A stretch of 64,000 nt of DNA. Origin: a virus (Duplodnaviria; Heunggongvirae; Uroviricota; Caudoviricetes). The translations under genes and the position numbers were made by a program. Positions 3,383 to 19,398 of this stretch are shown one piece after another. Position 1 is the first letter of the stretch. The number at the start of each line of letters is the position of its first letter. The stretch lies in IMG/VR virus record IMGVR_UViG_2778260992_000001. The stretch is one strand, 5' to 3'. The notes beneath the pieces were generated by a model. The model saw nothing but the letters and a program-made list of their open reading frames with translations, was not told the DNA's origin and made no database searches.

Positions 3383-4483
3383 TCACACTGCGCGGAATGC
3401 GATTTCGCCAGGTATTACTTCACCTTGCCAATACATTTGGGCAGCAACGCGATCTGCGAGGTCACGATAAATAGCCGTAAATTCGCTATCTGGACGACTA
3501 ATAACGGTTGGTGTTCCGTTATCCAGATCTTCACGAAGAGAGATATGAAGTGGCATTTGGCCTAACAACTGCGTGTTGTATTTCTCGGCCAGTTTCTGTG
3601 CGCCACCGGTGCCAAAAATTGGCTCGTGATGACCGCAGTTACTGCAAATATGCACACTCATGTTTTCAACGATACCCAGTACCGGCACTTCGACTTTTTC
3701 GAACATCACAATGCCTTTCTTCGCATCGATCAGCGCGATGTCTTGCGGCGTAGTTACCACAACCGCACCAGTTACAGGAATGTTCTGCGCCAGCGTCAAC
3801 TGAATATCACCAGTGCCCGGCGGCATATCGAGAACGAGATAGTCCAGATCAGGCCACAGTGTTTCCTGCAACATCTGCATCAGCGCCTTGCTGGCCATCG
3901 GTCCACGCCACACCATTGCATTGTCGTCGGTGACCAGATAACCAATAGAGTTGGTTGCCAGGCCATGAGACATGATAGGTGCCATGTGAGTACCGTCAGG
4001 TGAGGTTGGACGTTGGTTTTCCGAGCCCAGCATGGTTGGAATTGATGGACCATAGATATCGGCATCCAAAATACCAACTTTCGCACCTTCAGCAGCCAAC
4101 GCCAGTGCCAGGTTTACCGCCGTGGAGGATTTACCCACGCCGCCCTTGCCTGAGCTGACGGCGATAATGTTCTTCACGCCATTAATGCCTGGTTGGTTTT
4201 TGACGCGCTTAAGCGTGGCAATGTTGTACGACAGCTTCCAGTCAATAGCCTTTGCGCCAGTGATACGGAGCAGATCACCACTACATTGCTCTTTCAGGTC
4301 TTCAAAAGGCTTATTCCACACGAAAGGCATGATTAGTTCGACATGCAGTGTGTCATCCATCAACGCAACATGGTGTAACGCTTTAAGCGTAGTCAGGTTG
4401 TGTTTCAGGGTTGGGTGCTGAAAATTAGCCAGCGTACCGGCTACCATTGCTCTCAGGGCATCCGGCGATTTGGACTCGCTCAT
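3383..4483 (-). CDS. apbC: iron-sulfur cluster carrier ATPase ApbC/Mrp
   Basis: Walker A GKGGVGKSS, C-terminal CSNCGHHEP motif; near-identical to E. coli Mrp as recalled; divergent from metG. Confidence 0.92.
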   Translation of the reverse strand: MSESKSPDALRAMVAGTLANFQHPTLKHNLTTLKALHHVALMDDTLHVELIMPFVWNKPFEDLKEQCSGDLLRITGAKAIDWKLSYNIATLKRVKNQPGINGVKNIIAVSSGKGGVGKSSTAVNLALALAAEGAKVGILDADIYGPSIPTMLGSENQRPTSPDGTHMAPIMSHGLATNSIGYLVTDDNAMVWRGPMASKALMQMLQETLWPDLDYLVLDMPPGTGDIQLTLAQNIPVTGAVVVTTPQDIALIDAKKGIVMFEKVEVPVLGIVENMSVHICSNCGHHEPIFGTGGAQKLAEKYNTQLLGQMPLHISLREDLDNGTPTVISRPDSEFTAIYRDLADRVAAQMYWQGEVIPGEIAFRAV

Positions 4484-4640
4484 CCCGTCTCCTTTATTTT
4501 AATTTGCGCAATTGTCGCCTTGTAGTGTACTCCAGCTACGACATTTAATCATTTATGAGAAATGCTGTTATCACATGGCAGACATAAGGCCATTTTGTTA
4601 CTATCAAGCCCCTTTTCACTACAAAGAAGTAATGCCTACT

Positions 4641-6674
4641 ATGACCCAAGTCGCGAAGAAAATTCTGGTGACGTGCGCGCTGCCGTACGCTAACGGCTCA
4701 ATCCACCTCGGCCATATGCTGGAGCACATCCAGGCTGATGTCTGGGTTCGTTACCAGCGAATGCGCGGCCACGAGGTTAATTTCATCTGTGCCGACGATG
4801 CCCACGGTACGCCGATCATGCTGAAAGCACAGCAGCTTGGTATCACACCGGAACAGATGATTGGCGAAATGAGTCAGGAACACCAGACTGATTTTGCAGG
4901 CTTTAACATCAGCTATGACAACTATCACTCGACGCACAGCGAAGAGAACCGTCAGTTGTCCGAGCTTATCTATACTCGCCTGAAAGAGAACGGTTTTATT
5001 AAAAACCGCACCATCTCTCAGCTGTACGATCCGGAAAAAGGCATGTTCCTGCCGGACCGTTTTGTGAAAGGCACCTGCCCGAAATGTAAAGCACCGGATC
5101 AATACGGCGATAACTGTGAAGTCTGCGGCGCTACTTACAGCCCGACTGAACTGATCGAGCCGAAATCGGTAGTTTCTGGTGCTACGCCGGTAATGCGTGA
5201 TTCCGAACACTTCTTCTTTGATCTGCCTTCTTTCAGCGAAATGTTGCAGGCATGGACCCGCAGCGGTGCGTTGCAGGAGCAGGTGGCAAACAAAATGCAG
5301 GAGTGGTTTGAATCTGGCCTGCAACAGTGGGATATCTCCCGCGATGCGCCGTACTTCGGTTTTGAAATTCCGAACGCACCGGGCAAATATTTCTACGTCT
5401 GGCTGGACGCGCCGATTGGCTACATGGGTTCCTTCAAGAATCTGTGCGACAAACGCGGCGACACTACCAGCTTCGACGAATACTGGAAGAAAGACTCCAC
5501 CGCCGAGCTGTACCACTTCATCGGTAAAGATATCGTTTACTTCCACAGCCTGTTCTGGCCTGCCATGCTGGAAGGCAGCAATTTCCGCAAGCCGACCAAC
5601 CTGTTTGTTCATGGCTATGTGACGGTGAACGGTGCGAAGATGTCCAAGTCTCGCGGCACCTTTATTAAAGCCAGCACCTGGCTGAATCATTTTGACGCTG
5701 ACAGCCTGCGTTACTACTACACTGCGAAACTCTCTTCGCGCATTGATGATATCGATCTCAACCTGGAGGATTTCGTTCAGCGCGTGAATGCCGATATCGT
5801 GAACAAAGTGGTTAACCTGGCCTCCCGTAATGCAGGCTTTATCAACAAGCGTTTTGACGGCGTGCTGGCAAGCGAACTGGCTGACCCGCAACTGTACAAA
5901 ACCTTTACTGATGCTGCTGAAGTGATTGGTGAAGCATGGGAAAGCCGCGAATTTGGTAAAGCGATTCGTGAAATCATGGCGCTGGCTGATCTGGCTAACC
6001 GCTATGTCGATGAACAGGCTCCGTGGGTGGTGGCGAAGCAGGAAGGGCGCGATGCCGATCTGCAGGCGATTTGCTCTATGGGCATTAACCTGTTCCGCGT
6101 GCTGATGACGTACCTGAAACCGGTACTGCCGAAACTGACTGAACGTGCAGAAGCATTCCTGAATACAGAACTGACCTGGGATGGTATCCAGCAACCGCTG
6201 CTGGGCCATAAAGTGAATCCGTTCAAGGCACTGTATAACCGCATCGACATGAAGCAGGTTGAAGCACTGGTGGAAGCATCCAAAGAGGAAGTAAAAGCCG
6301 CTGCCGCGCCAGTAACTGGCCCACTGGCAGATGATCCGATTCAGGAAACCATCACCTTTGACGACTTCGCCAAAGTTGACCTGCGCGTGGCTCTGATTGA
6401 AAACGCGGAGTTTGTCGAAGGTTCTGACAAACTGCTTCGCCTGACGCTGGATCTCGGTGGCGAAAAACGTAATGTCTTCTCCGGCATTCGTTCCGCTTAT
6501 CCAGATCCACAGGCACTGATTGGTCGTCACACCATTATGGTGGCCAACCTGGCTCCGCGTAAAATGCGCTTCGGTATCTCCGAAGGCATGGTGATGGCTG
6601 CTGGCCCCGGCGGGAAAGATATCTTCCTGTTAAGCCCGGATGCTGGTGCTAAACCAGGCCACCAGGTTAAGTAA
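4641..6674 (+). CDS. metG: methionine--tRNA ligase
   Basis: 677 aa from ATG at 4641 (track start 4512 is TTG); HIGH-like ANGSIHLGH and KMSKS motifs; matches E. coli MetG as recalled. Confidence 0.95.
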
Positions 6675-6694
6675 TTAAGCAACCATTCTTCACA

Positions 6695-6721
6695 ATGCCC
6701 GGCAATACGCTGGGCATTTTC
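6695..6721 (+). terminator. putative metG terminator
   Basis: ATGCCC..GGGCAT stem followed by TTTTC. Confidence 0.45.
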
Positions 6722-6756
6722 ATTTAGACACAATCCCTTCTGATTTACACATACCC

Positions 6757-6835: not shown

Positions 6836-7135
6836 ATGTTGAACATTACCCAAGCCTACCAGGTGGCATTGATCAGCTCATCTCATACATCAGAGGAAGA
6901 TGCTCGCCGATTCATGATCGCAAGCAATGAGCTGGATTGGGTTTCACAAATTGAGTACGGTTGCATTGTCCACGCCGGGTTACAGGATGATGTCTGGAAA
7001 GACAACTTGCGTCGATATGGTATATCCGAGGGCGCGATTTCGAACATTCAGAAGGTACTTGATGTAGGCTTCGACTCTGTACATTTCGATTGTGGCGCAC
7101 CGGTCGTTGAAGGGCTTGAGTGCTGGCAATGGTAA
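6836..7135 (+). CDS. hypothetical protein
   Basis: ATG with GGAGTGG Shine-Dalgarno; first ORF after class-1 motifs. Confidence 0.5.
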   Translation: MLNITQAYQVALISSSHTSEEDARRFMIASNELDWVSQIEYGCIVHAGLQDDVWKDNLRRYGISEGAISNIQKVLDVGFDSVHFDCGAPVVEGLECWQW

Positions 7136-7171
7136 TCCGGCAATCGCTTCATACTAGATAACGGAGAATTT

Positions 7172-7357
7172 ATGCTTAAAGAAGACTCATATCTACTAAA
7201 GGCGCTTGAAATGCGTGGCGTTGAACCTACAGTGAAAAACGCCCACGATATCTACCTTCAGTTTTCACCGGAGCTGAAACGGCTCATAAATCAATACGGG
7301 GTTAATGACTCAAGTGTTAAAGCGATGATAGATGATGAATTAGACCATCTCATCTAA
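7172..7357 (+). CDS. hypothetical small protein
   Basis: ORF with Shine-Dalgarno. Confidence 0.4.
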   Translation: MLKEDSYLLKALEMRGVEPTVKNAHDIYLQFSPELKRLINQYGVNDSSVKAMIDDELDHLI

Positions 7358-7509
7358 TCGTTATCCTATGATAATGGTTTCACTTTGAGATTGTCATTTT
7401 TCATAGCCAAAGCTGATGTTTGTGGAAGGTGGATTGATAAACGGATGCGTATTTAGGTTATACAAGTGAGAAAATTGATAATATATAAAAGCGATTTTTA
7501 TGTGATGGA

Positions 7510-8079
7510 ATGGATGTGATGGAAACCCAGAACCAACAAACAAAACCTCTGAATAACATTTATGCGTGGATTCTAGCGTTCATGCCTTTCTTCTTTGGAG
7601 TATTGCCGGAAGAGTATACCAATTACGCTATTATAATTGGGGGTGTAACTACCATCGGTTTGTTAGTAGCTGACAGAATGGCTCTATCGGAGTCTGGCTG
7701 TGAACCACCTTCAATTCTATGGGGGGTATTCCTCCTGCCTGTCTATCTCTGGAAGCGCGCGACTATTACAAAAGGCAGCAGAGTGCCATTTATCATAATC
7801 GTTGCGTCGCTGGCTTGGATTATCTTCATCGGCATCCCACACAAGGACGAGGTTGCTCTTGAAGAAGCAGCCTGCCCTCTCGTGACAACTATTCTGAAAG
7901 AGAATAACGGTTCGACTGCACCAAAATGTATGAAGGTGACAATAGAGGACAAGGTGACGGATAAGTTCTATAGAGCAACGGCTACACTAGACAATGGTAA
8001 TGACATTAACATTACTCTGGAACTTACCGGTGACAGGAACTTCTACGTCCGTGTTCCAAATGTTTATCTGAACAACTAA
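7510..8079 (+). CDS. hypothetical integral membrane protein
   Basis: Several hydrophobic helices in translation (AWILAFMPFFFGVL, FIIIVASLAWIIFIGI). Confidence 0.5.
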   Translation: MDVMETQNQQTKPLNNIYAWILAFMPFFFGVLPEEYTNYAIIIGGVTTIGLLVADRMALSESGCEPPSILWGVFLLPVYLWKRATITKGSRVPFIIIVASLAWIIFIGIPHKDEVALEEAACPLVTTILKENNGSTAPKCMKVTIEDKVTDKFYRATATLDNGNDINITLELTGDRNFYVRVPNVYLNN

Positions 8080-8225
8080 CGGTTGCAACTTATTGATAAT
8101 GGCGGTCACAATTTGATTCTTTTCTATAAGAATCCGTTGATCGCCACTACTCCCCTTCCATACCTGCAATCATACCCTTAAATATCAATAGGTTATGGTT
8201 GTTTATACAAATAAGAAAACAACTA

Positions 8226-8945
8226 AATAACAGATCAACGAAACGTCAACGCTTTCACCCGATTTGGTCTAAAAAATTGACGTTTTCACACATCACTTCT
8301 TATACCCGTAACTCTACGCAGCAGACAGCGCCACAGCGTCCAATTTTCACCACAGACGACCCAACACACTACCAACAAAAACACACGCTCAAAATCGCTC
8401 CCGTTGCGTTACGCAACCATATAAACAACTTATTTTCAGGCATAACAAAACAACTAAATAACACACATGCCATTCCCAAAAACAACCAACCTCTTTATGG
8501 CAGGCTACCGAAAAGACCCACCTCTTCTCCCCAGGCTACCGGACAACCAACCTAACTTTCACAGGCAATCCGAAAACATTCATACGCGCGATACCCACGA
8601 CACGCCATTACCCAAACAGCGAAGAAATACCAGACTCACTGAAACCCCAACGAAGCCTGTTACCGCAAGGATTCTCTCAATCCCAAAAGACACGAAACAG
8701 AACAATCACGGGAAACGCCATTACCCAATACACGAATAACTACAAAAGCCTTTCAGGCACTCCAGACAAACAACTCAAACACAATAACGAAAGCAATCGC
8801 CCACCTGCCATTACTCCATACACGGAGAAGAACAATCACCAAAACGACGAGAACACCCCATAGAAGAACCACCGCAAAACGAACGAAACCACATACACCG
8901 ACAGAGAAAACAACACACCCAATTCACCAACAGAAATAGTCGCCG
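8226..8945. other. noncoding A+C-rich (G-poor) strand-skewed region
   Basis: About 0.7 kb without credible ORF; plus strand dominated by CAAC/ACAA/AAC runs. Confidence 0.55.
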
Positions 8946-9140
8946 TATAGGACATTCTGGAAGGAGTGAGCATTAACGCCTATAGAGAGGTTGAGACAGA
9001 TAAAACACAACATGTATAGCGAAGAAGCCAGGTATGTATAAGTGGGGATGGAAGGAGGGGTGTCGCCTCCTTTTTCGTATTTATTCAACTCCTGATTTTA
9101 TCCCCCGTAACACCCCTACGGTCAGCCTTCGGTCCATACA

Positions 9141-9271
9141 GGGGAAAGGCTGCATCCCGCTACAGAAACGGCTGGGTTGCCTTTGGGAACGGCTGGAGGT
9201 TTTCAGGGAAACGGTCGAGTTGCCTGTGTGGATTTCGGGAAAAGGCTCGATGCCGGTTCAGGAACGGTGGC
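9141..9271. repeat. iteron array 1: six GRAAACGGC-like repeats at about 21-bp spacing
   Basis: Copies starting near 9144, 9164, 9187, 9208, 9239, 9261 in a G-rich noncoding stretch. Confidence 0.6.
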
Positions 9272-9600
9272 GTACCGGTATAGCGAGAGGGAGAGTTGCG
9301 GCTACCCACCTGTAATGTGCGGGAAGAAGAGAGGCGCTCACGTAGGCGGACTTGCTTACCGCTGGATTCCCTCTGAATGCCCAGCTACAGCGTAATTGTG
9401 CCAGACAGCCAACGGGTCACAATCGATTTCAGTAGGTTTTTGGGGAGAGGATTACTCTGCCACCAGCCACTTTCGGCCACTAAATCAGAATAATGTAAAA
9501 AGTGTACTCGGTACTGAACCTGAAAACTCACTGCCAAAACCACATTCACCGGAACAAAATCCTTTTTCGCCTGTGCGTTATTGCGATAATAACACCATCA

Positions 9601-9617
9601 AGAAAACATGTTGTTTA
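9601..9617. promoter_or_regulatory. class-1 palindrome
   Basis: AGAAAACATGTTGTTTA; the track ATG at 9608 lies inside it. Confidence 0.55.
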
Positions 9618-9628
9618 AGGATTGCTTT

Positions 9629-9958
9629 ATGTTTACAAATATCGACATCAACCAAATCAAGAAATTAACTCAAAAAGAGTTTGATCAGTTTTATGAGTTA
9701 GAAGGTTGGTCTTCCACTCTGATCAATTCAAGATGGGTGCTGGAACTGATGACTCGTGATGACGCACCTGCTTTGATGATCAGCGACCTGGGTGAAGATG
9801 CTGACTTTATGGATATGAGCGAATTTTGTGTGGACACATACAACCGCAGCCAGAAGTACTACTTCACATGCGATAGCGAAAATGACGTGATTTCTAAGGT
9901 CTATCTTCACCTCGTCCAGCATTGGGACGTTCAGGAGTTTCTTGAAGTATTCGAGTAA
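9629..9958 (+). CDS. acidic small early protein (hypothetical)
   Basis: ATG at 9629 after AAGGA; product strongly acidic (about 22 D/E vs 8 K/R). Confidence 0.5.
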   Translation: MFTNIDINQIKKLTQKEFDQFYELEGWSSTLINSRWVLELMTRDDAPALMISDLGEDADFMDMSEFCVDTYNRSQKYYFTCDSENDVISKVYLHLVQHWDVQEFLEVFE

Positions 9959-9967
9959 CCCCAACCA

Positions 9968-9990
9968 AAGCCAGCATTGCTGGCTTAATT
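9968..9990 (+). terminator. hairpin AAGCCAGCATTGCTGGCTT
   Basis: Perfect stem immediately after stop. Confidence 0.5.
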
Positions 9991-10083
9991 TCTCTATAGC
10001 CGCAGGGAAGAACCTGCATATAGCTCATGCACCTGATCAATATGCTTTGTAGCCGTTTTCTTACTGGTATTATTTACGCCATT

Positions 10084-10101
10084 GAGAAAACAAGTTGTTT
10101 A
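10084..10101. promoter_or_regulatory. class-1 palindrome
   Basis: GAGAAAACAAGTTGTTTA; track TTG start 10082 overlaps it. Confidence 0.55.
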
Positions 10102-10111
10102 CGGAGTTGTG

Positions 10112-10423
10112 ATGAAAAAATCATTGGTTCTTGGTCTGGACAAAGACCAGAAGAGAAAAGAGAAGCCTGCGCTGGTTGCTCAATTAACTTTGCTGGACAT
10201 CGTTGCCAATGGAACCTCTATTCGTCTGTTCCGTGAAACAGCGGTGTCTTTCGATAAAAACACCTTTACTCGTTATGTAATGAATGTTCGTCGCCAGCGT
10301 GGAAAAGGCTGGGTGGCATTTCAAAGAATGTGGCCGGAACATCAGCTCGAACTGGCTTTGATGGAAGTTAACCGCGTGGCCCAGCAAGAGATTCAGAGAG
10401 CATCAGTGATGGCAATAGCCTGA
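10112..10423 (+). CDS. hypothetical basic small protein
   Basis: ATG at 10112 after ACGGAG; in frame with track ORF 10082. Confidence 0.5.
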   Translation: MKKSLVLGLDKDQKRKEKPALVAQLTLLDIVANGTSIRLFRETAVSFDKNTFTRYVMNVRRQRGKGWVAFQRMWPEHQLELALMEVNRVAQQEIQRASVMAIA

Positions 10424-10457
10424 TAATGTGCAAGTGGTAATTAGTCGACCGTACGAC

Positions 10458-10487
10458 AGCCCCGCCATCCTTACGGGGCTTTTTTGT
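10458..10487 (+). terminator. rho-independent terminator
   Basis: GCCCCG..CGGGGC stem plus TTTTTT. Confidence 0.65.
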
Positions 10488-10549
10488 ATTGTAAGTACAT
10501 ACTTACGATCATAGAATATAAAAATAACCAAAACACTACGGAGAGTGAA

Positions 10550-10945
10550 ATGACCGTTAAACGCGAAAAACTGACAGTTGATGTTTACTATGCCTCTGAA
10601 ACCGCCGAAGGTAAGAATGTGGCAAAAATCACCGTTGTTACGTACAACACCGAAACTGGTGCCGAAGTCCAGGCCAGTACGATCGTGCGTAAAGGTGATG
10701 CCTCCGGCGGCGAGTACGCGACTCAATACCAGTCCATTCTCGATGCAACTGACCCGCTGCTGCTGAAAATCGAGAACTACTTCCGCCAGGTTAATGAAGA
10801 GGTGTTTGAAACCATGATGAATATGGTTAACACCGTATTCGCCTCCAGCCTGAATACCAACACTACCTGGATTGGTCAGTACGGCCTGCGCATTACCTCT
10901 GGCATTCCTGCCGACACCTTAATCCCTGAAAGCGTATTCGCTTAA
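10550..10945 (+). CDS. hypothetical protein
   Basis: ATG at 10550 after GGAGAGTG; in frame with track ORF 10484. Confidence 0.5.
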   Translation: MTVKREKLTVDVYYASETAEGKNVAKITVVTYNTETGAEVQASTIVRKGDASGGEYATQYQSILDATDPLLLKIENYFRQVNEEVFETMMNMVNTVFASSLNTNTTWIGQYGLRITSGIPADTLIPESVFA

Positions 10946-10954
10946 TCCTCTTTA

Positions 10955-10982
10955 AATGGCGCGTAAACCGCGCCATTTTATT
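10955..10982 (+). terminator. rho-independent terminator
   Basis: ATGGCGCG-TAAAC-CGCGCCAT plus TTTTATT. Confidence 0.65.
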
Positions 10983-10989
10983 ATGCCCG

Positions 10990-11005
10990 ATAACAATTTG
11001 TTTTC
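10990..11005. promoter_or_regulatory. class-1 palindrome (variant)
   Basis: ATAACAATTTGTTTTC with the same CTGCCTT tail as the 6757 copy. Confidence 0.5.
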
Positions 11006-11772: not shown

Positions 11773-12054
11773 ATGACTGATTTCACCATTACCCCTAAAG
11801 CACAAAATGTATTTCTTGAATCATGGCTGGACTTGCCGGAAACAGAACAGCAAGAAATGGATCATGTGGATTATGACGAGCAGGTAAGCACGCGATTCTT
11901 CCACTTTGAGGGATGCGTTTACGACATTGTCGACTTCATGCGAGATGACCGCTTCCCTGAATGGCACGCAAGCTATCCACTAAACGCCTTTGCCATGCTG
12001 ATGATCCGTGTGGATGATTCAGGGGATACCATCGACATCGGTCTGCTCCACTAA
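11773..12054 (+). CDS. acidic small early protein (hypothetical)
   Basis: ATG at 11773 after AGGA; about 19 D/E vs 4 K/R. Confidence 0.5.
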   Translation: MTDFTITPKAQNVFLESWLDLPETEQQEMDHVDYDEQVSTRFFHFEGCVYDIVDFMRDDRFPEWHASYPLNAFAMLMIRVDDSGDTIDIGLLH

Positions 12055-12061
12055 AGGCTAA

Positions 12062-12081
12062 GGCCACCAGCATTGGTGGCC
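12062..12081 (+). terminator. hairpin GGCCACCAGCATTGGTGGCC (copy 2)
   Basis: Perfect 8-bp stem, 4-nt loop; same flanks AAGG..TTAAATGAC as copy 1. Confidence 0.45.
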
Positions 12082-12222
12082 TTAAATGACTATCTTGTTT
12101 CCCGCAGGCTAAAAACACCAACCTCTTACCTCCAGGCAACCGACAAACCCACCTGTTCCCGTCCGGCTACCGTAACTTTCCACTTTGACGCCTTATTCGT
12201 ACAACGATAATTAACACCAACA

Positions 12223-12239
12223 AGAAAACAATTTGTTAT
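12223..12239. promoter_or_regulatory. class-1 palindrome
   Basis: AGAAAACAATTTGTTAT preceded by shared ACGATAATTAACACCAACA box. Confidence 0.55.
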
Positions 12240-12258
12240 TTACGATAAGGAATTAATC

Positions 12259-12741
12259 ATGAATTTTATCGCTACTGTAAACGCACCCGCACATGGCAAT
12301 ATCGCTGTAACGTTCTCTGACATTGAAAAACGAGTACTTGGTGCATGGCGCGACAATGAGACGGTAGAACTGTCAGCACAAGAAAAATGCATTATTGCAC
12401 GCGACATCATTGGCAATCGTCGTTACTCGCGGGTATTTGAAAAAGCGTATGTGGTAAATTCTGGATTCGGAACGTTCGTCTTTCCGGTGCGCTCCGGGCG
12501 ATTCTGCCAGTCCAAGCTGATTGAGTTCGCTACGCAGATTTCTGTCTGGATTAAAACTCAATCGTCGTTCAAATTTTCCGACGATGAAGCAGTATCGCAG
12601 GGGATGCGGATCGCCAACAATGCAATTAAATGCAAAAACATTACGTATACCGCTGGCGTTGATACATGGAAACTGTTTTGCGCTAACTTTATGCTGAATG
12701 TATACGCAAGCAACCGCATCCACATCCTTGATGGCGTGTAA
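12259..12741 (+). CDS. hypothetical protein
   Basis: ATG after TAAGGAATT; last rightward early gene. Confidence 0.5.
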   Translation: MNFIATVNAPAHGNIAVTFSDIEKRVLGAWRDNETVELSAQEKCIIARDIIGNRRYSRVFEKAYVVNSGFGTFVFPVRSGRFCQSKLIEFATQISVWIKTQSSFKFSDDEAVSQGMRIANNAIKCKNITYTAGVDTWKLFCANFMLNVYASNRIHILDGV

Positions 12742-12748
12742 CTGAGAA

Positions 12749-12772
12749 GAGGGCCAGAAACGGCCCTTTCTC
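12749..12772 (+). terminator. rho-independent terminator
   Basis: GGGCC-AGAAAC-GGCCC plus TTTCTCT. Confidence 0.6.
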
Positions 12773-12790
12773 TATAGCCACCAGCTGCCG

Positions 12791-12909
12791 CAGGGAAATT
12801 TTCAGAAACGGCGAGGAACGTATTCATGAGCCGACGGGAAACGGCCAGGATTTTTTCGGGAAACGGCTGCATTCGCCTTTATGTAGAAAAAACATCGGGA
12901 AGCTGGTGG
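12791..12909. repeat. iteron array 2: GGAAACGGC-like repeats
   Basis: Strong copies near 12805, 12839, 12861 plus degenerate ones; convergent intergenic region. Confidence 0.55.
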
Positions 12910-13287
12910 AATCCAACCAGCGGTTGTCGGACAGGTGAGCGGGGAAAATTATGATGACTTTCGTCACCTGAGACATCCAGATTTCTTTCGTAGCATAATC
13001 ACATACGTGATTAAGTGGTGTGATTATGTGAAAAATCACGCGCACATAATACGCGAGCGGATACAGAACAAAACAAAATGCCGATCCGCACCGACAAATA
13101 AACGCGGATCACATAGCAAGACTAAAAGCCAATGATTAACCATACTCTATAGCGCAATATAACGCGTTTTAAGCGCGTTAATGTGTTAAGTAATGGGTAT
13201 GTACTGGCAAGGATATAAAAGCGCGTCTATGGCGTTATTTTGGTGCTTATTTTTATGTTGTTGGAGTGAGTTAAAGACAATAAAAAA

Positions 13288-13310
13288 CGCGCCATTGATG
13301 GCGCGTTATT
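13288..13310 (-). terminator. rho-independent terminator (minus strand)
   Basis: GCGCCATTGATGGCGC hairpin with T6 on minus strand. Confidence 0.6.
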
Positions 13311-13330
13311 GTGGAAGTATTGGAAACGAA

Positions 13331-13350
13331 AAAAGCGCCCATAGTGGGCG
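13331..13350 (-). terminator. rho-independent terminator (minus strand), GCGCCCATAGTGGGCGC
   Basis: Hairpin plus T-run on minus strand, just past stop of ORF 13358..13588; identical hairpin at 13831. Confidence 0.65.
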
Positions 13351-13357
13351 CTCGATT

Positions 13358-13588
13358 TTATTTATGTAAACTGATTTCAAATCCCATTTCTACAAACGCT
13401 TTCAGCATTAAAAATATATCAGCGTCGTTCACGTCTGCTTTTTTTCGCTCCTGGTCGCTCAATAAGTCAATTTTGCGCGTCGTTTCATCTATAAGCTCGA
13501 CTGCGCGCCCAGCGTAACCAGCGATCCCAGCGATGCGATTAACATAATATTCGTTATGGACGTTAACGCCAGCGATAAGAACAAACAT
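13358..13588 (-). CDS. hypothetical protein (AT-rich accessory gene)
   Basis: ORF track; AT-rich codon usage; own terminator. Confidence 0.45.
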   Translation of the reverse strand: MFVLIAGVNVHNEYYVNRIAGIAGYAGRAVELIDETTRKIDLLSDQERKKADVNDADIFLMLKAFVEMGFEISLHK

Positions 13589-13608
13589 GATTAAGCTCCT
13601 TAAAAAAA

Positions 13609-13812
13609 TTAAATAGAATTTTGAAGTTTTCCAATTAATGCGCTTAAACGTAAGTATTCACGTTTGCGCTTGCAATCTCGCTTGCTGTTAAGCAAATCAG
13701 AAAACGTAAAATTTAATTGGTCGCGTTGCGCGATTAAATCATCGATTAATTCTAGTTTATAAGCGCGATACTTTGCGCGATATTCCGCGCGGATCTTGTC
13801 ATAGCTGACCAT
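13609..13812 (-). CDS. hypothetical basic protein
   Basis: Track ORF 13609..13857 trimmed to internal Met so the start is not inside the 13831 hairpin. Confidence 0.4.
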   Translation of the reverse strand: MVSYDKIRAEYRAKYRAYKLELIDDLIAQRDQLNFTFSDLLNSKRDCKRKREYLRLSALIGKLQNSI

Positions 13813-13830
13813 TTTCAAAGCTCCTTTAAA

Positions 13831-13850
13831 GCGCCCATAGTGGGCGCTTG
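13831..13850 (-). terminator. hairpin GCGCCCATAGTGGGCGC (second copy)
   Basis: Identical to 13331 hairpin; directly past stop of ORF 13861..14511. Confidence 0.5.
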
Positions 13851-13860
13851 ATTCCATTAA

Positions 13861-14511
13861 TTACGCTTTGAAAGCATCAGCTAAATAATTGTAGAAATCA
13901 TTTTTAATGAAGCGATATTGCTGAGTACCAGCTTTCGCGCTCCCAGCTCCTTTGACTTTTTCAACAAGTCCAAGACGTTCGCAAAGATTGATCAACTGGT
14001 TGGCTTGAGTATAACCAGCGTCCAATTTAATTTCACACGCTTTTTTAGCTTCATTCATTAAATCGAAAACAGCGCCATTAGTGAACGTGTCGATCTCGTC
14101 GTTAATCATATCGATTAAAGCGAATACACGAGATCCAGACATATCAGCGATGGAATAAACGCATTTACCAGATTTAATTGATTTAACCAGATAAACCAGT
14201 TTTTCCAGAGAATAACTATTAGTCATTGCATCACGGAAAAATACTTCTGGCGCTTGTTTGCTTGCTTTAATCGCATAGTAGAAAACAGAGCATAATTTTT
14301 CGTCTTCTACTGCGTTTACGACGTTGTTGATGAAGTAAGCAAGTTTAGTGGTCGCAGCTTGCATATTTGCTTTGTCTGCTTTAGTGTGCGTACCATTTTT
14401 ATAATGTTCGTTATATGTTTGAGTTGCCAGATCTGCTTTTTCGCGCAGTTCATCGGATACAATGGAAGCAGCTTCAATGATGGATTTTTTAGAAATGATA
14501 ATGTTAGCCAT
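13861..14511 (-). CDS. hypothetical protein, possible winged-helix C-terminus
   Basis: 216 aa; C-terminal LINLCERLGLVEK..QQYRF resembles a winged-helix DNA-binding segment (weak); monocistronic, AT-rich. Confidence 0.45.
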   Translation of the reverse strand: MANIIISKKSIIEAASIVSDELREKADLATQTYNEHYKNGTHTKADKANMQAATTKLAYFINNVVNAVEDEKLCSVFYYAIKASKQAPEVFFRDAMTNSYSLEKLVYLVKSIKSGKCVYSIADMSGSRVFALIDMINDEIDTFTNGAVFDLMNEAKKACEIKLDAGYTQANQLINLCERLGLVEKVKGAGSAKAGTQQYRFIKNDFYNYLADAFKA

Positions 14512-14756
14512 GATAATTTTTCCTTATGTAAATTTAAAATTTATTGTCGTTAGCGTCTTCGCTTTCGACGAGTTCAATTATCGATATGCGAAAAAAGATT
14601 GCAAGTGTTTTTTTTAAATTTTTTGCAGGGATGAAAGTCCTAGAAATAAAAGCGAGATCGTCGAAGGTGTTCCCTAAATAAATAATCGATTGCGGCTTTA
14701 GACCTTATATATATTTAGGTTATTTGATTTGTAGATATAAAGAAGTGATGTGAAAA

Positions 14757-14782
14757 ATAATAACCGGACTTAGCCGGTTATT
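14757..14782 (-). terminator. rho-independent terminator (minus strand)
   Basis: TAACCGG..CCGGTTA hairpin plus T-run on minus strand past stop at 14795. Confidence 0.6.
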
Positions 14783-14794
14783 AACCTTATAGAT

Positions 14795-15103
14795 TTATTG
14801 AACAGAATCTACAGCCTTACGATTGGTGTCAAATAGCGCATCAACGAACTGTGCCGATGACTCGCTAGATTCGCAATCCAACATTGCCCGTTCTTCATTT
14901 GCCACTTTCTTACACAGTTCTACATTCTCACCTATCGCTTTTCCTGCTTTTACGGCTGCCGAAAATTGATACATGCAAACTGATACATTCTGAGACGTTG
15001 AGCACACGTCATTCATCAGCGACTGAATGACAGGCTTATAGTCCATTGCATTTGCCGCAACTGAGCAAAGTAAAAATAATGGTGGTAACAATATCGATTT
15101 CAT
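14795..15103 (-). CDS. secreted Cys-containing small protein
   Basis: N-terminal signal peptide MKSILLPPLFLLCSVAANA; several Cys in the mature part. Confidence 0.55.
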   Translation of the reverse strand: MKSILLPPLFLLCSVAANAMDYKPVIQSLMNDVCSTSQNVSVCMYQFSAAVKAGKAIGENVELCKKVANEERAMLDCESSESSAQFVDALFDTNRKAVDSVQ

Positions 15104-15106
15104 AAC

Positions 15107-15631
15107 TCAAAAAGGCAAAATTCGTTCAACCCAATCGAACAAAACAACTATTTTTCTACCGTTCTCGACACGTAGTGTAACCTGACAAGCATCTGCGCCT
15201 GCTGACACCCCCTCAATTTCACGGCCATCCGCCATGTACACCCTTATAGATTTGTTTGCTTTGTAGGCTTGGTTGCAAATTGCAAAAAAATCGCGGCGTG
15301 ATGGCCGATTATCGACATAATCAGGGTGAACTGTTAGTCGACCTTTGAAATCGTGAGCGATACTGTCAACCACACCTGATTCAATTGTACTAATGCGTTC
15401 AAGTGGGAGCCTTATACGATTTTCTTTGTCAAAAGGGGCTGGGCAAAGGTCAACTTTGTTACGAGATGGCATGAGGCCATAAACGTACATGCAAAACGCC
15501 TGGCCATCTTCGAGAGTGACCCTTACAGGAATTTGTTCTCTGCGCCAGAACATCAGTAGTTTTTCAACGTTAGTGTAATCTCGCGGCCAGAGTTCAGCTT
15601 GGATACCGTAGGTAATATCTTTGGTTGTCAT
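15107..15631 (-). CDS. hypothetical protein
   Basis: Track ORF 15107..15709 trimmed to internal Met (MTTKDITYG) to avoid overlap with the lipoprotein gene. Confidence 0.45.
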   Translation of the reverse strand: MTTKDITYGIQAELWPRDYTNVEKLLMFWRREQIPVRVTLEDGQAFCMYVYGLMPSRNKVDLCPAPFDKENRIRLPLERISTIESGVVDSIAHDFKGRLTVHPDYVDNRPSRRDFFAICNQAYKANKSIRVYMADGREIEGVSAGADACQVTLRVENGRKIVVLFDWVERILPF

Positions 15632-15635
15632 GTCA

Positions 15636-16058
15636 TCACAGAGTTGTTGGCAGAATGTCGATGTCACCAGAATTGCTGGTGAACACCCTGAACGCTTTTG
15701 TGTCTCCATTCTTCAGAGTCGTTTCTCGCTCTTGACGAGCGGGGTTTAGAGCACATAAACCTGCACCTTCAAGAGATGCACCCACAATTAATTCTCCGGC
15801 ATTTAAATGAAAAGTCGCTTTTTCGCCTGTAGCCAGTTTTGCGACAGTTTCGCCATTGATGAAAATGGAAGCATCACATCCAGCTCCTACAAAACCTGTG
15901 TCTCTCATTACCACCAACGTAGCTGGCGCTGCGCTTTGATACTTGAACACTTTGGCCTGCGGTGCTGGTTTGGCGTCATGGATTGATATTGGACGTGATT
16001 GGCACGCGGTAAGCATCAACACTGGTAACGTTAGTAGAGGGAGAAGCGAGTATTTCAT
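15636..16058 (-). CDS. putative lipoprotein
   Basis: Signal peptide with lipobox LTAC (MKYSLLPLLTLPVLMLTAC); start moved to this Met. Confidence 0.55.
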   Translation of the reverse strand: MKYSLLPLLTLPVLMLTACQSRPISIHDAKPAPQAKVFKYQSAAPATLVVMRDTGFVGAGCDASIFINGETVAKLATGEKATFHLNAGELIVGASLEGAGLCALNPARQERETTLKNGDTKAFRVFTSNSGDIDILPTTL

Positions 16059-16126
16059 GTTAGTTTTAGAACAGAAAGTGAACAGTATGGGAGACTTCAT
16101 CTTTGTCTCCCTAATTGATAGCGTGA

Positions 16127-16405
16127 TTATTTTAATCTGCTTAATAGCGTTTCAAGATCTTCCTTTGTCATATTAGAGTTCTCATAGATACGCATGATTT
16201 TCTCACGAGTCTTAGCGGAAGCCCCGACAGAAGATATAACCTTGTCAAAGTCGGCCATTGTCAATTGTTCCAGAATGGTATTTATGACTTCAGCCTTAGA
16301 CATTTTGATATTTTTTTCTTTTAGTTTCACTTGAAACTTTCCAAGTTTGTCATTGGCCTTATCAGACAATGCTACCTGACAGTAAGTTGTTTTCTTTTCA
16401 CTCAT
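16127..16405 (-). CDS. hypothetical small protein
   Basis: ORF directly downstream of the helicase gene, same strand. Confidence 0.45.
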   Translation of the reverse strand: MSEKKTTYCQVALSDKANDKLGKFQVKLKEKNIKMSKAEVINTILEQLTMADFDKVISSVGASAKTREKIMRIYENSNMTKEDLETLLSRLK

Positions 16406-16407
16406 AA

Positions 16408-17967
16408 CTAATCTCGTTTCAGAACTCCAAAATCGAATGCTCCATCAATAGGCAATACACCTTCTGCAAAGCCAGGTGTGGTGTCGATGATGTGTTTTCG
16501 CTCATAAGAGTGAGACAACAGGTATTTGTTGCTAATGTCAATGAAATCAGTGATAAAACACACGTTTGCCTGATTTTTTTTGGCTCGTAAGCCACGACCG
16601 ACACGCTGTCTCATTTCAACTTCTGCTTTCCCACCACCAGCAAGAATGACCGCACCAACGCTTGGCACATCAACACCAACATCCAGAATAGTCGAGCCTA
16701 TTAAAACATCTATTTCACCAGACGCTAAACTATTCAGCTTTGCTTGCCTTGTCGTCTGGTTAGATTCCCCATAGATGAAATCAACTTTAAGACCTGACTC
16801 CTTCATCATCTCCATCAGGATTTGCCCGTGGCGTTTAAGACGAACCAGAGTCATGCAGTTGAGTGAATGTTGCTTATAAAGCAATGCCTCGCGCACTATG
16901 GCCTCGTTACGTCCCAAATTATACACGATCCCCAACTGATAAGCCTTTTGGTAGGCGGTGCTCATACCAACTCTAAAATTAAGGTGTTTGTTGGCAAGTT
17001 CCGCCTTGATTCTGACCTCGTCTGGCTTGTAAGCAACTTTATGATAAAGGAAGTACGGTTTTGCCAGAATGCCTCGATCAATCAGGTACTTTTCTGTGAC
17101 TTTAATTTCAATTCGACCGGCCACAGCCATCAGACGCATGTTGGCTTCTGTAGAATCCTTCATGAACGGCGTGGCCGTAAGCGCCAGACGATAGTCTGCG
17201 TTCACACATAATCTGGCAATGTCATAGAAATTAGAGCCTGAAGACTCATGCGCTTCTTCCAGAATAAGCAGAGACACACTTGAAAGGAAGCGTTTCACTA
17301 GCTCCCGACGTTTGAGGTGGTAGCTCTTTTTATCTGGTGTTGCATCGCGTGGTGGTTCTTCAAGGAAACTTGCCAGAGTTTGAACTGTAGCGACGTTGAT
17401 ATGTCGTGATACCTGGAACTCACCCGAGCCAATGACTCCAACCTTTTGGTCTTTTAACCACGGTTCGCCATTTTCGGCGCGGTAGTCGATGGATCTCTGG
17501 AAGTTTTCGGCCATTTGAAACATCAGAACAGAGCGGGTTGTTAAAAATAATGTCATTCGACCGATACGTGCAGCTGCTTTGCAGGCAACGTTAGATTTCC
17601 CGCCACCAGTAGCGATCTGCGCAATCATCATTCCCTCTCGAACCAGTGTTTCCACAGTCTGATCCTGATATGCATAATCAGGATTGTATGGGAATGGGTT
17701 AACCGCCGGATTTGGTTTACCAAGCGCCGGGGCTTTGTCTTTGCGGATATGAACACATTTGATGCCCGCCTTGTTCAAGTTCGCCGCTACAGGCTTGGCA
17801 AAGCCAGCAGGGAACGAGTTTTTACTCCAGTTGAACATCGTGCTTGTGCCCTTCCAGTCGCCAGTCTCGACTTCGTAGCTCAACATTTGCTGCACCAGTT
17901 GCTTTACCTTGTCATCTGCGCCAGAAATAAGCGCATTTACTGCGTTAGATACAATCCGAACAGTCAT
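16408..17967 (-). CDS. SF2 DEAH-type helicase
   Basis: Motif I ATGGGKS, motif II LEEAH, motif III TATP, motif VI QRVGRGLR. Confidence 0.8.
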   Translation of the reverse strand: MTVRIVSNAVNALISGADDKVKQLVQQMLSYEVETGDWKGTSTMFNWSKNSFPAGFAKPVAANLNKAGIKCVHIRKDKAPALGKPNPAVNPFPYNPDYAYQDQTVETLVREGMMIAQIATGGGKSNVACKAAARIGRMTLFLTTRSVLMFQMAENFQRSIDYRAENGEPWLKDQKVGVIGSGEFQVSRHINVATVQTLASFLEEPPRDATPDKKSYHLKRRELVKRFLSSVSLLILEEAHESSGSNFYDIARLCVNADYRLALTATPFMKDSTEANMRLMAVAGRIEIKVTEKYLIDRGILAKPYFLYHKVAYKPDEVRIKAELANKHLNFRVGMSTAYQKAYQLGIVYNLGRNEAIVREALLYKQHSLNCMTLVRLKRHGQILMEMMKESGLKVDFIYGESNQTTRQAKLNSLASGEIDVLIGSTILDVGVDVPSVGAVILAGGGKAEVEMRQRVGRGLRAKKNQANVCFITDFIDISNKYLLSHSYERKHIIDTTPGFAEGVLPIDGAFDFGVLKRD

Positions 17968-18010
17968 AAACCTCTTTCCTTAGTGCCTTTTGTATGTTAT
18001 TTGGCTATTA

Positions 18011-18032
18011 TAATAAGTAAGTGATTACTTAG
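18011..18032. promoter_or_regulatory. class-2 element TAAGTAAGT..TTACTTA
   Basis: TAATAAGTAAGTGATTACTTAG in divergent region between helicase and ParB-like genes. Confidence 0.5.
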
Positions 18033-18049
18033 TGGATTGTAGCAATAAA

Positions 18050-18730
18050 ATGGATGTAAAAATCACGATTTTGCAGGTTGATGTTGCCAACCTTCGCCCG
18101 AATACCTGGAACACCAATTCGGTTGGTGCGCAGAATTTTGAAAAACTGAAAGGTTCTATCGAAAAATTGGGCTTTTTTAAGCCAATTTTGGCTCGTGAAC
18201 TTGAAGATGGATTTTTTGAAATCCTCGGCGGTGAACATCGCTGGCGTGCTGCTATTGAGCAAGGAATTTCAACGGTTCCGGTGCTTTCTGTGGGCAAAAT
18301 TAGCGATGTCGTAGCTAAACAGATGTCACTGGTGGACAACGAGCGATACGGTGAAGACGACCAAATCGCATTGCAACGCTTCATTGAAGAAATTCAGTCA
18401 GAACTTGACTATCAACTGTTTGAAATCGCTCCGTATGACGACGAAATCTCGATGGTTTTAGCAAAAGAGGCGGCAATCGACCTTGAAGCACTGGAGGCGT
18501 TGTCTCGTGGTAGTGATGAGCCTGTCGATACCGACAAACGAGAGAAAACCGAACGTGTGGGTGCGGAACATCAGACCATGCGCTTCAAAGTAACTTTCGA
18601 TGCGTCAGATCGTGTTGCAGAAACCATAAAAAACATCATCAAAGAGCAGGCTATTAACACCGGTAATGAAATGGAGAACGCTGGTGAGGCTCTGGTGTGG
18701 CTGGTCGACTACTACAAGGAGCGTATGTAA
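18050..18730 (+). CDS. ParB/Srx-fold N-terminal domain protein 1
   Basis: GGEHRWRAA arginine-rich motif resembling ParB GERRxRAA box; start moved to ATG 18050. Confidence 0.6.
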   Translation: MDVKITILQVDVANLRPNTWNTNSVGAQNFEKLKGSIEKLGFFKPILARELEDGFFEILGGEHRWRAAIEQGISTVPVLSVGKISDVVAKQMSLVDNERYGEDDQIALQRFIEEIQSELDYQLFEIAPYDDEISMVLAKEAAIDLEALEALSRGSDEPVDTDKREKTERVGAEHQTMRFKVTFDASDRVAETIKNIIKEQAINTGNEMENAGEALVWLVDYYKERM

Positions 18731-19398
18731 TGACCAAAAAGTTTGAAATCGTATATCGCGACCCGGCAGATCTTATTCCCTATGAGATGAATGCCAAAAA
18801 GCATGATGAACAGCAGATCAGAGATCTGGCCGCAGCCATTAAAAAGCGCGGATTTGACCAGCCAATTACGGTCGATAAGAACGACGTAATTATTACTGGC
18901 CACGGCCGCCGTGAGGCTGCAATTTTTGCTGGACTTGAGCGCGTACCGGTTATTGTTCGCGATGATCTCAGTGATGACGAGGTTCGTGCGAAGCGCCTTG
19001 AAGATAACCGACTTGCCAGCATTGATTACGATGCAATTAAGCTACAGAAAGAGCTTGAGTCGCTTGTTCTGGACGATATCGAGGTTTTCGGCTTTGAAGA
19101 GCGTGAGTTGAATGTTCTCGTTGGCAGTATGACAGAAGAAATGGACACCGACTCGCTAGTTATCGATCTTGGCGAAGAAACTAAACGACAGAAGGATGAA
19201 CACACCGAGATCAGTCGTGAAGTTGCAGCGGAAGAAGTACGTGTTGTCGACGTATTGGGCTTTAAAACGCTCCCTGCTGGCTCTGCCATTGTTGTTGGTG
19301 ATTTGCTTGCCCATATGGAAGAAATGACGGGAGAAAGCGGGGTAGACGCATTTGTGGCATATGCGGAGAAGATCTCTTCCGGGGAGATGGCTGCATGA
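18730..19398 (+). CDS. ParB/Srx-fold N-terminal domain protein 2
   Basis: TGHGRREAA motif; start ATG overlaps previous stop (TAATG). Confidence 0.55.
   Translation: MTKKFEIVYRDPADLIPYEMNAKKHDEQQIRDLAAAIKKRGFDQPITVDKNDVIITGHGRREAAIFAGLERVPVIVRDDLSDDEVRAKRLEDNRLASIDYDAIKLQKELESLVLDDIEVFGFEERELNVLVGSMTEEMDTDSLVIDLGEETKRQKDEHTEISREVAAEEVRVVDVLGFKTLPAGSAIVVGDLLAHMEEMTGESGVDAFVAYAEKISSGEMAA

Follow-up and report, generated by a model that had tools for sequence, protein, structure and literature searches.

A gene-free module of 1.55 kb (positions 8080-9628) lies in the 64-kb stretch of phage DNA analyzed here (64,000 nucleotides, the window), and its left arm is a tract of about 0.7 kb dominated by A and C on the plus strand. 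No other noncoding DNA found in the element is as well conserved, and the module most likely acts as DNA. Our tentative reading is that it is a cis-acting element, silent in lysogeny, which may serve as the lytic replication origin of the phage or as an enhancer of that origin. A function at the DNA level is favored because the module is silent in lysogens, its repeats are spaced by whole helical turns and change in copy number by whole units, its sites stand in inverted orientation, and two distant 8-mers covary. Among such functions, an origin is favored because the phage brings its own replisome without a known origin, and because the layout of iterons and AT-rich patch, the repressor-type operators, and a partner locus all fit one.

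Host element and distribution

The 1.5 kb around the tract matches plasmids of ~110 kb in 243 of 5426 complete E. coli genomes, at identities of up to 98% and never on a chromosome. It also matches the phages Cyrano, CMS-2020a, and PhiR41_1 and, more distantly, Salmonella phage SSU5. On the basis of these plasmid and phage matches, the window is assigned to an E. coli phage-plasmid of the SSU5/pHCM2 type. The gene content fits (tail, capsid, terminase, DnaB-like helicase, DnaG-like primase, ligase, and type Ib ParA), and a RepB-family plasmid initiator is encoded elsewhere on the circle. A helicase, a primase, a ligase, and Pol III alpha are supplied by the phage itself, together with a 5'-3' exonuclease and an RNase HI, the latter annotated as frameshifted in the E. 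coli record examined. With the same 1.5 kb as the query, blastn returns 839 plasmids from Klebsiella, Escherichia, Enterobacter, Salmonella, Citrobacter, and Cronobacter, mostly at 66-74% identity, and none of the matches listed places the module outside the SSU5 family. The copy in Klebsiella plasmids of 157-260 kb is an IS-truncated remnant and was set aside as uninformative. In the one Yersinia pestis pMT1/pFra record examined, the module is missing and the second locus described below is kept; plasmid maintenance thus seems possible without the module.

No description of this region was found in the searchable literature, and no paper was found that maps a lytic origin for the SSU5/pHCM2/pKpn family. 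These phage-plasmids are common in clinical E. coli, Klebsiella, Enterobacter, and Salmonella, sometimes with resistance genes, and the module offers a concrete candidate for the switch from low-copy plasmid to lytic replication.

Base composition of the tract

The first-pass annotation, made from the sequence alone, had described positions 8226-8945 as a stretch of strong A+C strand skew and had allowed that the composition might prove ordinary once quantified. The base counts bear the skew out: the stretch holds A 0.392, C 0.326, G 0.128, and T 0.154 (A/C/G/T of the whole window, 0.282/0.218/0.244/0.256), and its A+C fraction of 0.718 lies at z = 7.3 relative to all 720-bp windows (mean 0.500, sd 0.030). 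The highest value of any 720-bp window is 0.719, starting at 8221, which the stretch in effect equals. Scanned in 100-bp steps, A+C passes 0.67 at ~8275, reaches its maximum of 0.81 near 8825, and is down to 0.35 by 9175. The onset thus lies near 8275-8300, and the skewed core spans ~8300-8945. The composition flips from the A+C tract to a G-rich iteron array within ~200 bp. The G-rich iteron region that had been noted after the tract is real, with six GGRAAMGGC copies ~22 bp apart. The skew is of the amino/keto and not of the purine/pyrimidine type (A+G 0.52), on which ground an R-loop-prone arm was rejected. Measured as C over G, it forms a bubble of 923 nt (8067-8989), which is the longest on either strand in the window and has an area 4.5-fold that of the next bubble on the plus strand.

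The AAC, ACA, and CAAC runs that had caught the eye at first are present, but no more often than the composition gives under a first-order Markov model. Neither AAC, ACA, and GGA nor A-R-N runs are enriched in the tract against this model, and the only k-mer above expectation is the repeat GCCATTAC (z = 26).

Coding potential and RNA structure

That the tract holds no credible coding frame, as was first proposed, is confirmed from several sides. Its long open frames are explained by the scarcity of stop codons in T-poor DNA, and stop-to-stop frames break at different places even between relatives that are 92-98% identical. No period-3 signal was found in the tract, and start codons are nearly absent from 8300-8950 (2 ATG, 0 GTG, and 1 TTG vs 13, 9, and 13 expected). 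A conserved protein, the finding that would have overturned the first description, was looked for among the relatives and in Pfam and PHROG, and the tract ORFs gave no match. RefSeq annotates nothing at the tract in the E. coli plasmids among the matches listed, and the "hypothetical proteins" placed there stem from isolated calls, in Cyrano and SSU5. Two from Cyrano, the ORFs 8199-8555 and 8467-8739, are unconserved and have neither period-3 signal nor family match; a protein-coding gene was rejected accordingly.

A structured RNA was rejected in turn, since an Rfam 15 covariance-model search of 7000-11000 returned nothing at E <= 1 and folding over 8310-9300 shows no excess (z +0.8 for the plus and +1.0 for the minus strand). 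The speculation that the tract encodes an Hfq-binding RNA rich in A-R-N triplets is not supported by these results, by the near silence of the tract in the LF82/Cyrano RNA-seq data, or by its ARN runs, which stand at chance (at least three triplets, 5 vs 5.2 expected; at least four, 1 vs 1.1 expected). Sponges for CsrA through GGA or for Hfq through ARN sites were rejected, each motif being at chance level. RNA pairing between the M4 and M5 repeats (Table 1) was also rejected: 8 of 10 positions match, the two mismatches are identical across lineages, and the energetics give no signal.

Conservation and layout of the module

For the alignment, 53 copies were collected and dereplicated to 36. 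Column conservation in these 36 is 0.6-0.98 across the block 8085-9620, vs 0.24-0.5 in both flanking genes, the low values of the flanks being due to the different genes that lineages carry there. In every copy, the A+C fraction of the tract is 0.63-0.74. Given that this range is kept in all 36 dereplicated relatives and that the skew is present in the distant pCAV group, the skew is not a chance feature. Polymorphic columns (AC 68, AG 61, CT 62, AT 40, CG 28, and GT 7) match the substitution spectrum of a reversible model at this composition, which indicates that the skew is held and not decaying.

The most stringent test of this conservation is the pCAV group, from Klebsiella oxytoca, which has a neighboring protein only 33% identical; its syntenic gap is again ~1.5 kb, with the elements in the same order. 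From the left, a hairpin, an operator, and a promoter-like element lead into A+C-rich DNA of ~700 bp, in which the AT skew reaches 0.74. The composition then switches sharply to G/T-rich iterons, after which come an AT-rich patch, GGAAACGGG iterons, Chi, and the next promoter. Little of the pCAV tract still aligns convincingly, and iterons in the neighborhood change in copy number by whole units. It is composition and architecture, rather than sequence, that are kept in pCAV. The module provides a clean case in which base composition, not sequence, stays constant across a long divergence.

Table 1. Features of the module and of the second locus (positions in the window)
Feature	Position	Strand	Remarks
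Hairpin, directly after the stop codon of the upstream cargo gene	8100-8146	+	conservation 0.88-0.95
Degenerate operator module TTGTTT..AAGAAAACAAC	8199-8232	+	pCAV counterpart is a perfect palindrome, AAGAAAACAACTTGTTT
Inverted repeat ATCAACGAAACGTCAACG (8234-8251) / TTGACGTTTTC (8277-8287)	8234-8306	+	encloses promoter-like element
Promoter-like element: A-tract, TTGACG, 18-nt spacer, TATACC	8277-8282 (TTGACG); 8301-8306 (TATACC)	+	directed into A+C tract
Left bracket 8-mer CTTATACC	8299-8306		inverted partner of 9035-9042
A+C-rich, G-/T-poor tract	8300-8945	+	no ORF, almost no start codons, no predicted structure
Internal operator-like element AAACAACTTATTTTCAGGCATAACAAAACAAC	8423-8460	+	reads AAACAAGTTGTTTTCAGGCATAAGAAAACAA in relatives; equivalent mid-tract in pCAV
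M4 (GCCATTACCC repeats): four dispersed GCCATT(A)CCC, at 8469, 8604, 8717, and 8807	8469-8835	-	
M3: three tandem 31-bp repeats ACCnACCTCTT-N5-CAGGCTACCG-N5	8480-8571	+	conservation 0.91-0.98
Right bracket 8-mer (T)GTATAAG	9035-9042		
Terminator-like hairpin, G/A-rich vs C/U-rich	9050-9076	+	only terminator-like site found
AT-rich patch CGTATTTATTCAAC..GATTTTAT	9077-9100		between hairpin and iterons
M5: six G-rich iterons GGRAAMGGY	9141-9268	+	spacing about 22 bp (21-31); kept in pCAV
Chi site, GCTGGTGG on the minus strand	9460-9467	-	kept as CCACCAGC in E. coli, Enterobacter, and Klebsiella lineages
Promoter/operator of next gene: GATAAT 9585-9590, AAGAAAACATGTTGTTT 9600-9616, SD AAGGA, ATG 9629	9585-9628	+	
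Second-locus M3 array, 2.5 units	12104-12173	+	directly upstream of promoter of ORF 12259-12741
Second-locus M5 iterons, 12793-12867	12778-12909	+	flanked by Chi(-) 12778 and Chi(+) 12902

The hairpin at the left end consists of an outer stem GGCGGTCA/TGATCGCC, an inner stem GATTCTT/AAGAATC, and a loop TTCTATAAG, and folds as RNA with dG -19.1 (z -5.6; z -3.1 and -1.4 in relatives, -3.3 and -4.0 in pCAV). The loop TTTCTATAAG is conserved and the stems vary by lineage, pCAV included; no U-tract follows on the 3' side. The hairpin always stands behind the upstream stop codon, although the upstream genes vary by lineage. The promoter-like region is nearly invariant in the 36 relatives (conservation 0.85-0.95; TTGACA-17-TTACAC in pCAV), and it fails sigma-70 criteria because the last position of the -10 element is not T. 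The palindrome AAGAAAACAAnnTTGTTT lies just downstream of GATAAT boxes at ~17 places per plasmid, before many small genes and parA, and looks like the operator of a global, probably prophage, repressor, an assignment that we infer from this placement.

On the right, a hairpin equivalent to that at 9050-9076 is present in most lineages (dG -9 to -18), and the AT-rich patch is conserved as CGYATAAATTCAAGC, pCAV included. The M5 direct repeats, spaced by about two helical turns, are conserved in all lineages. The noncoding module ends with the promoter and operator of the next gene, whose real start is ATG 9629; its PHROG match begins at residue 8 of the ORF.

Repeat arrays and the second locus

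The M3 array, with a 31-bp unit equal to three helical turns, is the most conserved part of the module. Three of the M4 copies (8604, 8717, and 8807) are extended by ..ATACACGGAGAAGAAC, and on the minus strand M4 reads GGGTAATGGC, which fits the iteron core GGG(N)AANGGC. This strict core, a pattern defined after both motifs had been seen, has nine matches in 64 kb, which fall on eight distinct sites: three minus-strand sites in the A+C arm (the M4 sites), three plus-strand sites in the G arm, and two sites at the second locus. The chance of an independent repeat fitting the M5 core in either orientation is estimated at ~1e-3. The idea of one protein on inverted arrays is weakened by the fact that M4 always reads GGGTAATGGC and M5 always GGGAAAMGGC, and by the mostly different repeats of the A+C arm in pCAV; that one protein binds in both arms is therefore no more than possible. 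A homolog of FljA is encoded nearby and M4 shares ACCCAATAC with the E. coli fliC 5'UTR, but a FljA-homolog target was rejected: the alignment score of 18 is below scores reached elsewhere in the window (up to 26), and the likeness is thus attributed to chance.

The bracket 8-mers covary in three lineages, as CTTATACC/GGTATAAG, as CTTATATC/GATATAAG in Klebsiella, and as CTTACACC/GTGTAAG in pCAV. An invertible segment between them was considered and rejected, since the orientation relative to an anchor motif is constant in 53 of 53 extracted copies and in three aligned copies of the pCAV group; the shortness of the repeats, only 8 bp, also counted against it.

M3 and M5 recur together at exactly one other place in the 110-kb plasmid, 3.5 kb downstream, and this two-locus arrangement is present in all loci with longer flanks that were examined, in several lineages. 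The second M5 set lies directly 3' of the terminator of ORF 12259-12741, for which no known fold was found. RepA and the GTATGCTGTCAGCGGT iterons that flank repA are ~33 kb from the module, and GTATGCTGTCAGCGGT has no match among the repeat families found in it. Both the difference in iterons and this distance exclude the plasmid replicon, IncFIB(pHCM2), or a copy-control array.

Transcription in lysogens

Expression was taken from RNA-seq of LF82/Cyrano, tabulated as log2(FPKM+5) per annotated CDS (PMC9928086 S1 Table); the table covers annotated CDS only, with none over 8556-9033, and its samples fall short of full lytic induction. The upstream gene CYRAN_102, classed as a moron, stands at 45-590 FPKM and the next gene downstream, CYRAN_105, reaches about 220 FPKM (PMC9928086). 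Between them, CYRAN_103 (8199-8555) is at 0 FPKM in LB and in the other four conditions reaches at most ~14 FPKM, in one macrophage replicate, and otherwise stays under ~8; CYRAN_104 (9034-9440) is at about 1-20 FPKM (PMC9928086). By these values, both measured parts of the module are silent in lysogens and the neighbors are active. In these lysogen data, RNA-seq lends no support to the noncoding RNA of the first-pass annotation.

In the same samples, 45-590 FPKM in CYRAN_102 gives way to 0-2 FPKM in the CDS 120 nt further on (PMC9928086), and upstream transcription ends within ~120 nt of the stop codon. Such a drop is expected if the module is a Rho-dependent transcriptional insulator, with the conserved hairpin as the 3' end of the variable upstream cargo (moron) gene; this is the main rival to an origin, and we regard it as rather unlikely. 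The main predictors of Rho termination are C>G skew and lack of structure (PMC6144790), and the module has the longest C>G bubble of the window, start codons that are nearly absent, no excess structure, and a hairpin that stays behind the stop codon of whichever upstream gene a lineage carries. Such sites are predicted where the non-template strand has a C>G bubble of ~80 nt or more (PMC6144790), and the module has such a bubble. However, ~80 nt are enough for a rut site and the tract has ~700, and spaced YC is not enriched: the bubble holds three [(YC)N9-13]x4 motifs, at 8339, 8517, and 8569, a density of 3.4/kb vs 6.6/kb in the window, and x5 and x6 motifs are absent. Moreover, reads have already dropped fully before the strong skew sets in, and insulation leaves the iterons, M3, M4, the covariation of the brackets, the operators, and the second locus unexplained. 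An insulator and an origin can coexist in one module, and an insulator based on Rho would show how phage-plasmids wall variable cargo genes off from the lytic program.

Other possible roles for the arrays, and a possible lytic transcript

The arrays could also bind protein for another purpose, which we judge unlikely: regulatory looping by phage regulators or their titration, a role as accessory centromere, or recognition for packaging. Several oriented repeat families, operator-like palindromes of a plasmid-wide family inside the module, bracket 8-mers that covary over 730 bp like two sites of one protein, and the position of M3 at the second locus, immediately before a promoter as in an activator array, are all in keeping with such a role. 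Against it, the cassette of ParA (at 50960) and its small partner has its own upstream operator 42 kb away, and the terminase genes are 12 kb off; moreover, no role of this kind explains a composition constraint over 0.7 kb that outlasts sequence divergence. A virion end, one of the first proposals for the region, finds no support: the terminase genes lie at this same distance, and six phage records place the region at unrelated internal positions.

A further alternative, which we hold to be improbable, is a noncoding RNA or leader of the lytic phase, in which TTGACG-N18-TATACC would drive an unstructured A/C-rich RNA of ~750 nt that ends at the 9050-9076 hairpin. This RNA would serve either to draw off, as a decoy, a protein that binds single-stranded RNA (Rho, Hfq, or S1) or to prime or activate the adjacent iteron region. 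The conserved promoter-like element with its A-tract and flanking operator-like sites, and the position of the sole terminator-like hairpin at the far end of the tract, give the module the layout of the neighboring transcription units (promoter/operator, body, hairpin). The composition would leave such an RNA unpaired, and the RNA-seq table covers neither 8556-9033 nor fully induced cells. Nevertheless, the -10 element is poor and fails the sigma-70 scan, and the CDS at 8199-8555 is at 0 FPKM in LB and at most ~14 where CYRAN_105 reaches about 120-220 (PMC9928086). Unenriched ARN and GGA motifs, the lack of an Rfam match, and the lack of covarying structure also speak against it, and an RNA does not account for the two-turn spacing of the iterons or for the inverted sites.

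The module as a candidate lytic origin

The reading that we tentatively prefer, a lytic origin or its enhancer, can be outlined as follows. In the prophage state, a global repressor on AAGAAAACAAnnTTGTTT-type operators would keep the TTGACG-N18-TATACC element shut. After induction, one or more phage proteins would assemble on the ~22-bp iterons and the inverted GCCATTACCC sites, which surround the AT-rich center near 9000-9100, and transcription may enter from the left as well. Once the duplex is opened, the A+C-rich complements would be hairpin-free templates, since an A+C strand cannot pair with itself, and the G/T-rich strands would serve the DnaB-like helicase and DnaG-like primase of the phage. 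The second M3/M5 locus, 3.5 kb to the right, would be the partner site. The skew switch has the polarity of an origin: away from the center, either strand is G/T-rich in the 5'->3' direction. A 5'->3' helicase of the DnaB type would encircle the G/T-rich strands here, and primases would find G/T-rich trinucleotides there. The first-pass proposal of an origin-proximal region is favored by iterons at two-turn spacing beside an AT-rich patch, by silence in lysogens, by absence from the Yersinia record examined, and by this polarity of the skew switch. A phage lytic origin is thus plausible, but not the plasmid replicon, whose RepA iterons are ~33 kb off.

Several observations count against an origin. 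The AT-rich patch is not the least stable duplex and is absent from the six least stable 40-mers of 7900-9700, and helical periodicity was looked for in the tract and not found. Chi polarity flips at the second locus (12.8 kb) and not at the module, and the cumulative GC/keto skew, taken over the whole plasmid, tracks the direction of the genes without pointing to an origin; both were rejected as origin markers. The module has no conserved DnaA box, no Rep-like or initiator gene adjoins it, and it gave no direct sign of initiation. To our knowledge, no origin with an amino/keto-skewed arm of 0.7 kb has been described.

A bolder version, which we consider quite doubtful, is that the module represents a new architecture of phage origins, in which the start zone would be set by a selected amino/keto switch where an A+C arm of 0.7 kb meets a G/T-rich iteron arm, gated by repressor and operators, with a second iteron site 3.5 kb away. 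If true, both unwound templates would be without self-structure, and the strands that load helicase and primase would be G/T-rich.

Comparison with known systems

Iteron origins with a second iteron cluster include the lambda ori, P4 ori and crr, P1 incC/incA, and SPP1 oriL/oriR. Like these, the module has direct repeats spaced by about two turns beside an AT-rich patch, a second cluster a few kb away, and a place among early genes. Unlike them, it has no adjoining initiator gene, its repeats are unrelated to the RepA iterons of the plasmid, it has an A+C-skewed arm of 0.7 kb with a sharp switch in composition, and it is only a candidate start site. With transcript-primed origins of the ColE1 RNA II and T4 oriF type, it shares a promoter (here a promoter-like element) several hundred bp upstream that is aimed at the presumed start region, and an element that encodes RNase HI and a 5'-3' exonuclease. 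ColE1 RNA II is highly structured, and a G-rich segment forms its hybrid. In contrast, an RNA from the module would be unstructured and has no purine skew (A+G 0.52) favoring an R-loop.

Like lambda nutR-tR1 and other Rho-dependent terminators (PMC6144790), the module has, behind a gene, a hairpin whose loop is conserved and then untranslated RNA rich in C and poor in G, and read-through is lost sharply in vivo. The bubble, however, is ~10 times a rut site, spaced YC is unenriched, and neither a boxA nor an antiterminator protein was identified. As in protein-sponge RNAs (CrcZ for Hfq/Crc; Hfq ARN sites, PMC4104026), an RNA from the tract would be A-rich and single-stranded, but its ARN runs are at chance, it is unexpressed in the lysogen data, and it is without repeated motifs presented on hairpins. 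The parts of the module, namely iterons, operators, and hairpins, are familiar ones, and what is unusual is their combination with a long arm conserved only in composition and with a sharp switch in skew.

Chi sites and a recurrent palindrome

The recombination signal Chi (GCTGGTGG) occurs in 16 copies across the 64 kb window, against an expectation of approximately 2. Two of these copies form part of hairpins, of the form GGCCACCAGCATTGGTGGCC, with which small genes terminate. Chi orientation flips at a sandwich in which the iterons are flanked by a minus-strand copy on one side and a plus-strand copy on the other, an arrangement found again in most of the lineages examined. A second recurrent element, the palindrome AAGAAAACAAnnTTGTTT, lies approximately 10 nt 3′ of GATAAT boxes, ahead of many small genes as well as parA. 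Each plasmid has approximately 17 such sites, and the palindrome probably serves as operator for a repressor that acts globally.

Coordinates of the features discussed
Feature	Position	Strand	Record
Chi (positions given)	11590, 12062, 12778, 12902		window
Chi(−)/iterons/Chi(+) sandwich	12778-12909		window
Palindrome	6806, 9600, 11737, 12222, 50908 and others		window
apbC (mrp)/metG pair	3383-6674	divergent	window
FljA homolog, full-length (Pfam Flag1_repress, E = 2.5e-84)	15107-15709	(−)	window
DEAD/DEAH helicase, two tandem ParB-N-domain proteins, ABC-type ATPase	16408-20060		window
Left-module fragment	5985-6730		L081 (Klebsiella pWCGKP294-1)
Split dnaE	11931-16243		L076 (NZ_CP184119.1)

Relatives and neighboring genes

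Klebsiella plasmids of 157-260 kb retain the left 650-750 bp of the noncoding module as a fragment comprising the hairpin, the operator, the promoter-like element, and the 31-bp tandem repeats (M3), together with some of the A+C tract. In L081, the single copy examined, the fragment breaks abruptly at a junction that is read as a putative IS end. In the closest complete plasmid, L076, dnaE (Pol III alpha), which lies outside the window, is annotated in two pieces with an HNH endonuclease gene between them. This split suggests that a homing element or an intein-like sequence has inserted there.

Upstream of the terminase genes, the helicase gene is divergent from the ParB-N-domain pair and the ATPase, and this cluster is kept in both Yersinia pMT1 and the Klebsiella oxytoca group pCAV. 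The FljA homolog is labeled merely as a 'transcriptional regulator' in RefSeq; FljA is a post-transcriptional repressor of phase-1 flagellin, and the prophage may silence host flagellin through this protein. Separately, a 9-nt match between the M4 repeat of the A+C tract and the fliC 5′UTR turned out to be due to chance. The module is preceded by cargo genes, immediately upstream of which lies the apbC/metG pair. The methionyl-tRNA synthetase encoded by metG is full-length; the pair is annotated in this way in both RefSeq and the related phage Cyrano, and the two genes are likewise neighbors on the E. coli chromosome.
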